Of a stretch of 64,000 nt of DNA, positions 37,220 through 38,300 are shown in pieces; within the stretch, counting starts at the first letter, position 1, and every line of letters starts with the position of its first letter. Below the pieces are notes generated by a model. The model was given only the letters and a program-made list of their open reading frames with translations. It was not told the origin of the DNA and made no database searches. The position numbers and the translations under genes were made by a program. The DNA comes from Escherichia coli. Its GTDB lineage: Bacteria > Pseudomonadota > Gammaproteobacteria > Enterobacterales > Enterobacteriaceae. The DNA lies in assembly GCF_003018115.1 (NCBI RefSeq), contig NZ_CP027457.1, one strand, 5' to 3'.

Positions 37220-37446
37220 TGGCTGATGCAATGGATCTCGTACAGCAGCGCGTTGAAGAAGAACGCCAGCGCCATATCCGTGCTGCCCGTGCCAGAACGC
37301 CGGGCGTGTCACGCGTGCTTTGCATTGAATGTGAAGCGCCAATTCCGCCAGCAAGACGCCGCGCCATTCCGGGAGTGCAGCTTTGCATTACCTGCCAGGA
37401 AATAGCAGAGCTGAAAGGCAAACATTACAACGGAGGTGCTGTATGA
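37219..37446 (+). CDS. TraR/DksA-family C4 zinc-finger protein
   Basis: 75-aa ORF with CIECEAPIP...LCITCQE four-cysteine motif. Confidence 0.6.
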   Translation: MADAMDLVQQRVEEERQRHIRAARARTPGVSRVLCIECEAPIPPARRRAIPGVQLCITCQEIAELKGKHYNGGAV

Positions 37447-38300
37447 GCACCATCCTGAAATGGGCGGGTAATAAAACCGCCGTTATGTCCGAACTGAAAA
37501 AATACCTTCCTGCTGGCCCGCGACTGGTTGAACCTTTCGCGGGTTCCTGTGCAGTGATGATGGAGACGGATTACCCAAGCTATCTGGTAGCGGATATTAA
37601 TCCTGATTTAATCAACCTCTATAAAAAGGTTGCTGCTGATTGTGAGGTGTTTATATCTCGCGCCAGAATTTTGTTTGAGGAAGCAAACAGTGAGCTGGCT
37701 TATTACAACATAAGGCAGGAGTTTAATTACTCAACTGAAATTACTGATTTCATGAAATCGGTATATTTCCTGTATCTCAATCGTCATGGTTACCGTGGGT
37801 TATGTCGCTATAACAAGAGCGGGCATTTCAACATTCCCTACGGTAATTATAAAAAACCGTATTTCCCTGAAAAAGAAATTCGCGCATTTGCAGAGAAAGC
37901 CCAGCGGGCAACGTTTATCTGCGCCAGCTTTGATGAAACGCTGGCGATGTTGAAGGCGGGGGATGTGGTGTATTGCGATCCGCCGTATGACGGTACGTTT
38001 TCCGGCTATCACACTGATGGCTTCACTGAGGATGACCAGTATCACCTGGCATCCGTTCTTGAACATCGATCATCTGAAGGTCATCCGGTCATTGTTTCTA
38101 ACAGTGACACATCCCTGATTCGTTCGCTGTATCGCAATTTCACTCACCACTACATCAAGGCAAAACGCAGCATCGGCGTGTCGGCTGGCGAGAGTAAATC
38201 TGCAACAGAAATCATTGCTGTTTCCGGGGCGCGCTGCTGGGTGGGATTTGATCCTTCGCGTGGCGTGGATAGTTCTGCTGTGTACGAGGTGCGTGTATGA
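37443..38300 (+). CDS. DNA adenine (N6) methyltransferase, Dam-like
   Basis: Start [12 protein letters not shown] (AdoMet region) and DPPY catalytic motif ([11 protein letters not shown]); translationally coupled to gene A. Confidence 0.8.

Follow-up and report, generated by a model that had tools for sequence, protein, structure and literature searches.

The window analysed here, a 64,000-nucleotide stretch of the Escherichia coli contig NZ_CP027457.1 (assembly GCF_003018115.1), contains a P2-family prophage whose early operon carries dam, a gene for a DNA adenine methyltransferase (hereafter phage Dam). Taken as a whole, the evidence is best explained by phage Dam being the resident orphan Dam of a Fels-2-like E. 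coli prophage of the P2 family with 186-type immunity, a reading to which we assign a probability of roughly 80%. The gene is an already known, routinely annotated and fixed component of Fels-2-like P2-family prophages.

The prophage gene encodes an intact Dam-family methyltransferase by sequence

According to the ORF map and direct reading of the sequence, the dam reading frame extends on the plus strand from an ATG at 37443 to a TGA ending at 38300, comprising 858 bp and 285 codons (Table 1). The longest ORF call reaches an upstream TTG at 37383, but the true start is the ATG at 37443, because a GGAGG lies 6 nt upstream of it, homology to Dam begins at residue 4, and the annotated homologues are 858 bp throughout.

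Table 1 Coordinates of dam and of the surrounding early-region features in the window
Feature	Coordinates	Strand	Description	Evidence
CI immunity repressor	34872..35510	-	186-type; divergent from the early operon	PF07022, PF16452
Early lytic operon	35621..40711	+	186/Fels-2 type; tightly packed, one strand	ORF map; Pfam CII, DUF5347, DUF2732
TraR/DksA-type C4 zinc-finger gene	37219..37446	+	Homologue of P2 Orf82	PF01258 (E 3e-11); TIGR02419 over cutoff
Ribosome-binding site of dam	37432..37436	+	GGAGG; within the end of the TraR-like gene, 6 nt before the dam ATG	Direct sequence reading
dam	37443..38300	+	285-aa orphan Dam-family N6-adenine DNA methyltransferase; predicted target GATC	Pfam, NCBIfam, alignment with E. 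coli Dam, PADLOC
Ribosome-binding site of gene A	38286..38291	+	GAGGTG; within the final dam codons (E-V-R-V)	Direct sequence reading
Replication gene A	38297..40711	+	Rolling-circle initiator/nickase	PF05840 Phage_GPA (E 6e-128)

Phage Dam belongs to the Dam family and the D12 class, with full-length profile matches over the curated cutoffs: PF02086, the profile of D12-class N6-adenine methyltransferases, is matched with an E value of 2.3e-75 and 254 bits (cutoff 22) over positions 1–253 of 253, and the NCBIfam model TIGR00571 'dam' with 318 bits (cutoff 114.85). The NCBIfam equivalog model of chromosomal Dam, NF008152, gives 287.8 bits against a cutoff of 441, and phage Dam is therefore a paralogue rather than the host dam gene. 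The E. coli Dam structures 2G1P and 4GOL match phage Dam with E values of ~1e-73 and 47% identity over 255 aligned residues; structure prediction was skipped, since this identity to solved Dam structures settles the fold.

The catalytic motif IV, DPPY, occupies residues 179–182 (DNA 37977–37988) and is invariant in 18 aligned sequences. Motif I lies at residues 32–36 and the target-recognition hairpin at residues 117–136, so that the order of motifs is that of the alpha group. The AdoMet motif I (FxGxG) reads F-A-G-S-C in phage Dam, and the change of its final G to C is kept across the phage clade. Judged by its sequence, phage Dam is an intact alpha-group, D12-class N6-adenine methyltransferase with predicted activity. 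The first-pass annotation had described the product as a Dam-type adenine methyltransferase with a DPPY motif, which the PF02086 and TIGR00571 matches bear out; the degenerate catalytic motif that would have refuted it is not seen, DPPY being intact and invariant among the aligned sequences.

Compared with its counterpart in Salmonella phage RE-2010, dam shows 94.6% nucleotide identity, with 93–97% for its neighbours, and a dN/dS of 0.15. The gene is under purifying selection. Its divergence, similar to that of the neighbouring genes, and the dN/dS of 0.15 together indicate therefore that it has been maintained in the operon by selection for a long time and was not inserted recently. NCBI and UniRef list the exact protein under the name 'DNA adenine methylase [Escherichia coli]', and it occurs on 135 contigs. 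That phage Dam could be a decayed or inactive remnant is hardly credible: a 1-nt deletion in the prophage integrase may indicate an element in decay, whereas the full-length frame, the intact motifs, the 135 contigs with the exact protein and the low dN/dS all argue against a decayed methylase.

Phage Dam is predicted to methylate GATC

In E. coli Dam (EcoDam), the first base pair of the site is recognised by K9 and Y138, Y119 intercalates, and N120 forms a hydrogen bond to a base; contacts to the third base pair come from L122 and P134, and R124 reads the guanine of the fourth (PMC4417163). Six of these seven GATC-contact residues are identical in phage Dam (K9 = K6, Y119 = Y117, L122 = L120, R124 = R122, P134 = P132 and Y138 = Y136), and an alignment of EcoDam and 16 family members shows no variation at these six positions. 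The seventh, N120, is R118 in phage Dam and throughout the phage clade, while R137 of EcoDam corresponds to N135, the second DNA-facing difference. Because six of the seven contact residues are identical, the target of phage Dam is predicted to be GATC, the same site as that of the host enzyme; the first-pass annotation had left the target motif to be determined by a motif search.

Beyond the six contact residues, phage Dam resembles EcoDam in fold family, motif order and DPPY. It differs from EcoDam in overall sequence (47% identity, with R in place of N120 and N in place of R137), in lacking five residues following DPPY, and in bearing a clade-specific C-terminal tail of ~25 aa; in addition, EcoDam is encoded at the chromosomal dam locus and phage Dam in a phage early operon. 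The tail, which is absent from EcoDam, covers residues 262–285 (DNA ~38226–38297) and follows the pattern W-x-G-F-D-P-x-x-G-x-D-x-S-x-x-x-E-V-R, of which the terminal E-V-R codons are explained at least partly by the ribosome-binding site of gene A. We also considered the tail as a remnant of the gene found at this place in P2 or 186 and rejected this origin, the C-termini of P2 Orf83, 186 CP83 and 186 CP84 showing no similarity to it.

These clade-conserved features, namely the substitutions at N120 and R137, the loss of five residues after DPPY and the tail, are what would favour a specificity that is relaxed or directed to a site different from GATC. Such a specificity is nevertheless very unlikely, as the residues making base-specific contacts to base pairs 1, 3 and 4 and the intercalating tyrosine are invariant, and the TIGR00571 score lies well over its cutoff. 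The position of N120 is presumably variable also in T4 Dam, a GATC-specific enzyme. P1 Dmt and T4 Dam are likewise phage-borne orphan enzymes of the Dam family, found in other genomic contexts; their identity to phage Dam is 36% for P1 and 22% for T4, and P1 Dmt is larger and bifunctional.

dam is an orphan methyltransferase gene of the early operon, joined to gene A by an ATGA overlap

The host DNA of the window is that of E. coli: its gab region (14000–22000) shows 100% identity to several E. coli chromosomes. The prophage occupies the window from ~32.8 kb onward. Its leftward genes are the integrase and the CI repressor, and the early operon reads apl-like, cII, fil-like, DUF5347, DUF2732, TraR-like, dam and A, followed by a DinI-like gene, a cargo region, and then the portal, terminase, capsid and tail genes. 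The gene order, together with the 186-type CI repressor, identifies the early operon as that of a Fels-2-like (Felsduovirus-type) member of the P2 family. Homologues of gene A are annotated as 'replication endonuclease' or 'nicking at origin of replication'.

Within this operon, dam has no intergenic space of its own. The stop codon of the TraR-like gene (37444–37446) overlaps the dam start as ATGA, and the dam stop TGA (38298–38300) overlaps the ATG of gene A (38297–38299) in the same manner. The position of dam between the TraR-like gene and A is in agreement with the first-pass claim that the gene is embedded in the prophage early operon, and the ATGA overlap at 38297–38300, combined with the GAGGTG inside the end of dam, is in agreement with its claim that dam and A are translationally coupled. 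In P2 and 186, the slot between the zinc-finger gene and A has the same position and the same coupling to A, but its content differs: P2 carries Orf83 (DUF5405) and 186 carries CP82 (exonuclease-like), CP83 (DUF5405) and CP84 (PAPS-reductase-like), neither phage having a methylase there. According to the 186 record, A is apparently translated only when translation proceeds to the end of orf84, and the ATGA overlap between dam and A keeps this arrangement in the window. With dam before A in place of Orf83 or CP82–CP84, the window departs from the canonical P2/186 early region, and the first-pass statement that this region lacks dam was thus correct. The slot is variable among the branches of the P2 family, with dam occupying it in the Fels-2-like branch.

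The neighbours of dam, a TraR-like zinc-finger gene and replication gene A, do not make it part of a Type II restriction-modification system, and no adjacent cognate restriction endonuclease gene was found beside it. Since a restriction enzyme gene is absent next to dam, phage Dam is an orphan methyltransferase. The best PADLOC match of phage Dam is the orphan MTase model PDLC03729 (E 1.4e-110), and the orphan status proposed at first pass stands.

Several other features of the prophage and its surroundings were observed. The integrase gene (33829–34868, minus strand) is read as two overlapping ORFs, with the N-terminal domain at 34341–34868 and the catalytic domain at 33829–34353. The split results from a single-base deletion near 34406 relative to the Fels-2 and RE-2010 integrases, in a non-homopolymer context (GGGGGCTG-CCAGTGG); prophage excision may have been lost through this frameshift, or the frameshift may be a sequencing error. 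At the prophage end beyond the integrase, a 348-aa ORF (32793–33839, minus strand) has a weak match to the PADLOC '2TM effector' (2e-4) and no match in Pfam, and RE-2010 and ECE228 have other, unrelated hypothetical genes near the integrase. Outside the prophage, an AT-rich stretch between it and a tRNA-Met gene (24804–24879) contains a 1571-aa AIDA-type autotransporter adhesin (27787–32502, plus strand) with AIDA repeats, pertactin and beta-barrel domains.

Downstream of gene A, the DinI-like gene (40991–41296, plus strand) takes the place that the tum (SOS antirepressor) region has in 186; by analogy, this suggests that induction is linked to the SOS response, as it is in 186 and Fels-2. A 593-aa GmrSD_N/DUF262 protein (42357–44138, plus strand), which also matches PADLOC NsnA (8e-31) and PD-T4-2_A, is encoded in the variable cargo region that separates gene A and the DinI-like gene from the portal gene; the region is AT-rich, with a GC content of 0.36. 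The DUF262 gene probably serves in anti-phage defence as cargo of the prophage. The content of the cargo slot differs within the lineage, RE-2010 having, for example, an AIPR protein.

dam is a fixed component of Fels-2-like prophages

The closest named counterparts of dam occupy the same slot. STM2730 of Fels-2, located between the zinc-finger gene and A, is an 858-bp gene for 285 aa whose protein is 73% identical to phage Dam; gp10 of RE-2010 has the same 4-nt overlaps as the window gene and 95% protein identity; and the Klebsiella P2-like phages (Felsduovirus and relatives) carry a 'DNA adenine methylase' there, also with 95% protein identity. The order of the early operon in RE-2010 and Fels-2 is that of the window; in a near-identical prophage of E. 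coli ECE228, it differs only by an additional minus-strand gene, located between fil and DUF5347. The window dam is therefore a sequence variant of the gene of Fels-2, RE-2010 and the Klebsiella phages, with no substantial difference.

On a broader scale, the dam DNA matches 56 phage records, mainly Klebsiella and Salmonella P2-like phages, and the phage records listed annotate the product as DNA adenine methylase or DNA methyltransferase, beside the replication protein. It also matches 1239 of 5426 complete E. coli genomes (about a quarter), with at least 80% of the gene covered in 1231. A query restricted to the flanks, which consisted of the DUF2732 and TraR-like genes plus the first 800 nt of A, matches 1244 complete E. 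coli genomes. Among a spread sample of 60 flank-matching genomes, 49 have both flanks in full, and dam, annotated as 'DNA adenine methylase', is present in the slot in all of these (49/49); the region from flank to flank measures 2121 bp (48 genomes) or 2123 bp (one genome), corresponding to an 858-bp slot. At the protein level, more than 7000 cluster representatives across Enterobacterales match phage Dam with an E value of 1e-40 or better. The first-pass annotation had implied that dam is an unusual addition to the prophage, an impression that the 56 phage records, the 1239 E. coli genomes, Fels-2 STM2730 and RE-2010 gp10 contradict.

Two observations concern protein clusters (P0002, P0024, P0025, P0078, P0088 and P0117). 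In a collection clustered at 90% identity, the Dam protein shares one cluster with the 804-aa replication endonuclease, and some database proteins are fusions of Dam to Phage_GPA or to Phage_GPD (472–496 aa). These proteins resemble products of frameshifted gene calls or of prophage remnants fused by deletion, and annotation that relies on clusters can be misled by them.

In the note of the Fels-2 record, STM2730 is described as similar to an E. coli HS protein named 'retron EC67 DNA adenine methylase'. The Ec67 Dam reading frame of 1990 is said to encode a functional protein of 285 residues with ~44% identity to E. coli Dam. Both figures agree with the 285 aa and 47% found here. A later paper (PMC7826664) refers to Hsu, Inouye and Inouye (PNAS 1990) for the presence of a Dam methylase ORF in the 34-kb element with retron Ec67, and it reports this block of genes also from a Fels-2-like prophage of Klebsiella. 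The name Ec67 is absent among the best 120 homologues of phage Dam, and the link to Ec67 is drawn from the Fels-2 record note and PMC7826664. Among the papers searched, STM2730 appears in one, on another subject, the sigma-54 regulon.

Expression of dam is expected to be confined to lytic growth

In 186, the promoter pR drives the operon through A and is annotated as CI-repressed, and the operon of the window has an equivalent layout. By analogy, phage Dam and the replication protein are probably produced jointly in the lytic cycle, and dam is probably silent in the lysogen; silence is expected because dam is located in an early operon divergent from the CI gene and because 186 pR is CI-repressed. 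Transcription of dam from a CI-repressed early promoter would provide the enzyme only after infection or induction, alongside A. A crude promoter/terminator scan of 35300–41500 gave zero plus-strand promoter-like sites, and accordingly no sigma-70-like promoter on the plus strand of 35300–38300; the expected early promoter escaped the scan as well, which therefore shows no more than the lack of an obvious internal promoter.

The first-pass annotation had further suggested that the methyltransferase could alter host epigenetic regulation in lysogens. We regard it as quite unlikely that prophage Dam is expressed in the lysogen and there alters the expression of host genes or introduces a further methylation motif. 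Orphan phage methyltransferases are capable of such action in principle, and a weak internal or constitutive promoter is possible given the crudeness of the scan. However, the early operon diverges from the CI gene, both ends of dam lie in ATGA overlaps, and no promoter-like site was detected ahead of the gene. Moreover, the predicted GATC specificity is that of host Dam, so that no new motif is expected, and the host is E. coli, in which dam is core and the predicted target is already methylated by the host enzyme. A comparison of the methylomes of a lysogen and a cured strain would most likely reveal nothing new, and a negative result would not refute activity; the comparison is a poor test because repression of dam in the lysogen is probable and because the host already methylates its target.

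Two published cases were set aside. The prophage 'Dam homolog' M.EcoMIV of EC958 is reported to be untranscribed in the lysogen (PMC4659465), and we rejected it as expression evidence for the present gene, M.EcoMIV being a different methylase of 765 bp in a Mu-like prophage. The Dam-dependent prophage reintegration of PMC12455584 concerns host Dam and ST64B, not phage Dam.

Proposed role of phage Dam and distribution of GATC sites

According to a preprint (10.1101/2020.06.22.160242), dam belongs to the core genes of E. coli, and the endogenous enzyme is rate-limiting for DNA at high copy number; in its retron assay, the Dam enzymes of E. coli and Salmonella and plasmid-expressed P1 Dam acted alike on a GATC-containing msDNA hairpin, the activity of P1 Dam being GATC-dependent. 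Under the resident orphan Dam reading, the phage enzyme would methylate the adenine of GATC and supplement the limited host Dam, whereby fast-replicated phage DNA would become fully GATC-methylated before packaging. Two benefits would be likely: packaged genomes may be shielded from methylation-sensitive GATC restriction in the next host, and MutH and SeqA may be kept off un- or hemimethylated phage DNA. In the lysogen, dam would not be expressed, and its product would duplicate the activity of host Dam. That the enzyme may shield phage DNA from restriction, as the first-pass annotation had suggested, is plausible.

The ratio of observed to expected GATC sites is 0.72 in the prophage versus 0.75 in host DNA. 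GATC is neither depleted nor enriched in the prophage relative to host DNA, and the ratio gives no independent signal of selection tied to GATC. Neither at gene A nor at the immunity switch was clustering of GATC found beyond chance.

These site counts bear on a different explanation, in which the phage needs the methylase for its own regulation, through methylation-dependent packaging, origin firing or promoter control, and not as a restriction shield. P1 Dam and pac cleavage provide an example of methylation-dependent packaging. The tight coupling of dam to A, its fixation in the lineage (1244 genomes with the flanks and 1239 with dam; 49/49 in the sample), purifying selection and a GATC at 35534 in the cI/apl switch region would all be compatible with such a need. 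We nonetheless consider it unlikely, given that P2 and 186 replicate and package without a phage Dam, that GATC clustering beyond chance is absent at and inside A and in the switch region, and that methylation would already be supplied by host Dam.

Elsewhere in the window, three GATC sites fall within 30 bp (42108, 42119 and 42134; span 42108–42137), with a further site at 42029. This cluster is located ~220–250 bp upstream of the DUF262 gene; about one such cluster per window is expected by chance, and it may be meaningless. The AT-rich interval 32001–34000 has zero GATC sites. The densest run in the window comprises six sites at 16779–16928 with a spacing of 21–35 bp, and it lies inside a host coding region of the gab cluster (ORF 16626–17912, minus strand).

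Implications for Fels-2-like prophages

Elements of this kind have been known to carry a Dam methylase since retron Ec67 was studied in 1990, and dam is common in the Fels-2-like prophages of E. coli, Salmonella, Klebsiella and other Enterobacterales; its presence in the window is accordingly of little significance. A predicted GATC methylase is kept fixed, under purifying selection, in the replication operon of phages whose hosts are already Dam+.

The clade-specific features could in principle confer a property that is missing from host Dam. It is quite improbable, in our estimation, that R at the position of N120, N at that of R137, the five-residue deletion, the conserved tail and the obligatory translational coupling to A do so. 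Such an extra property could consist in acting on what A-dependent replication produces, in cooperating physically or functionally with gpA, or in a relaxed specificity. If this were true, phage Dam would be a replication accessory or a counter-defence factor and not a redundant copy of Dam.
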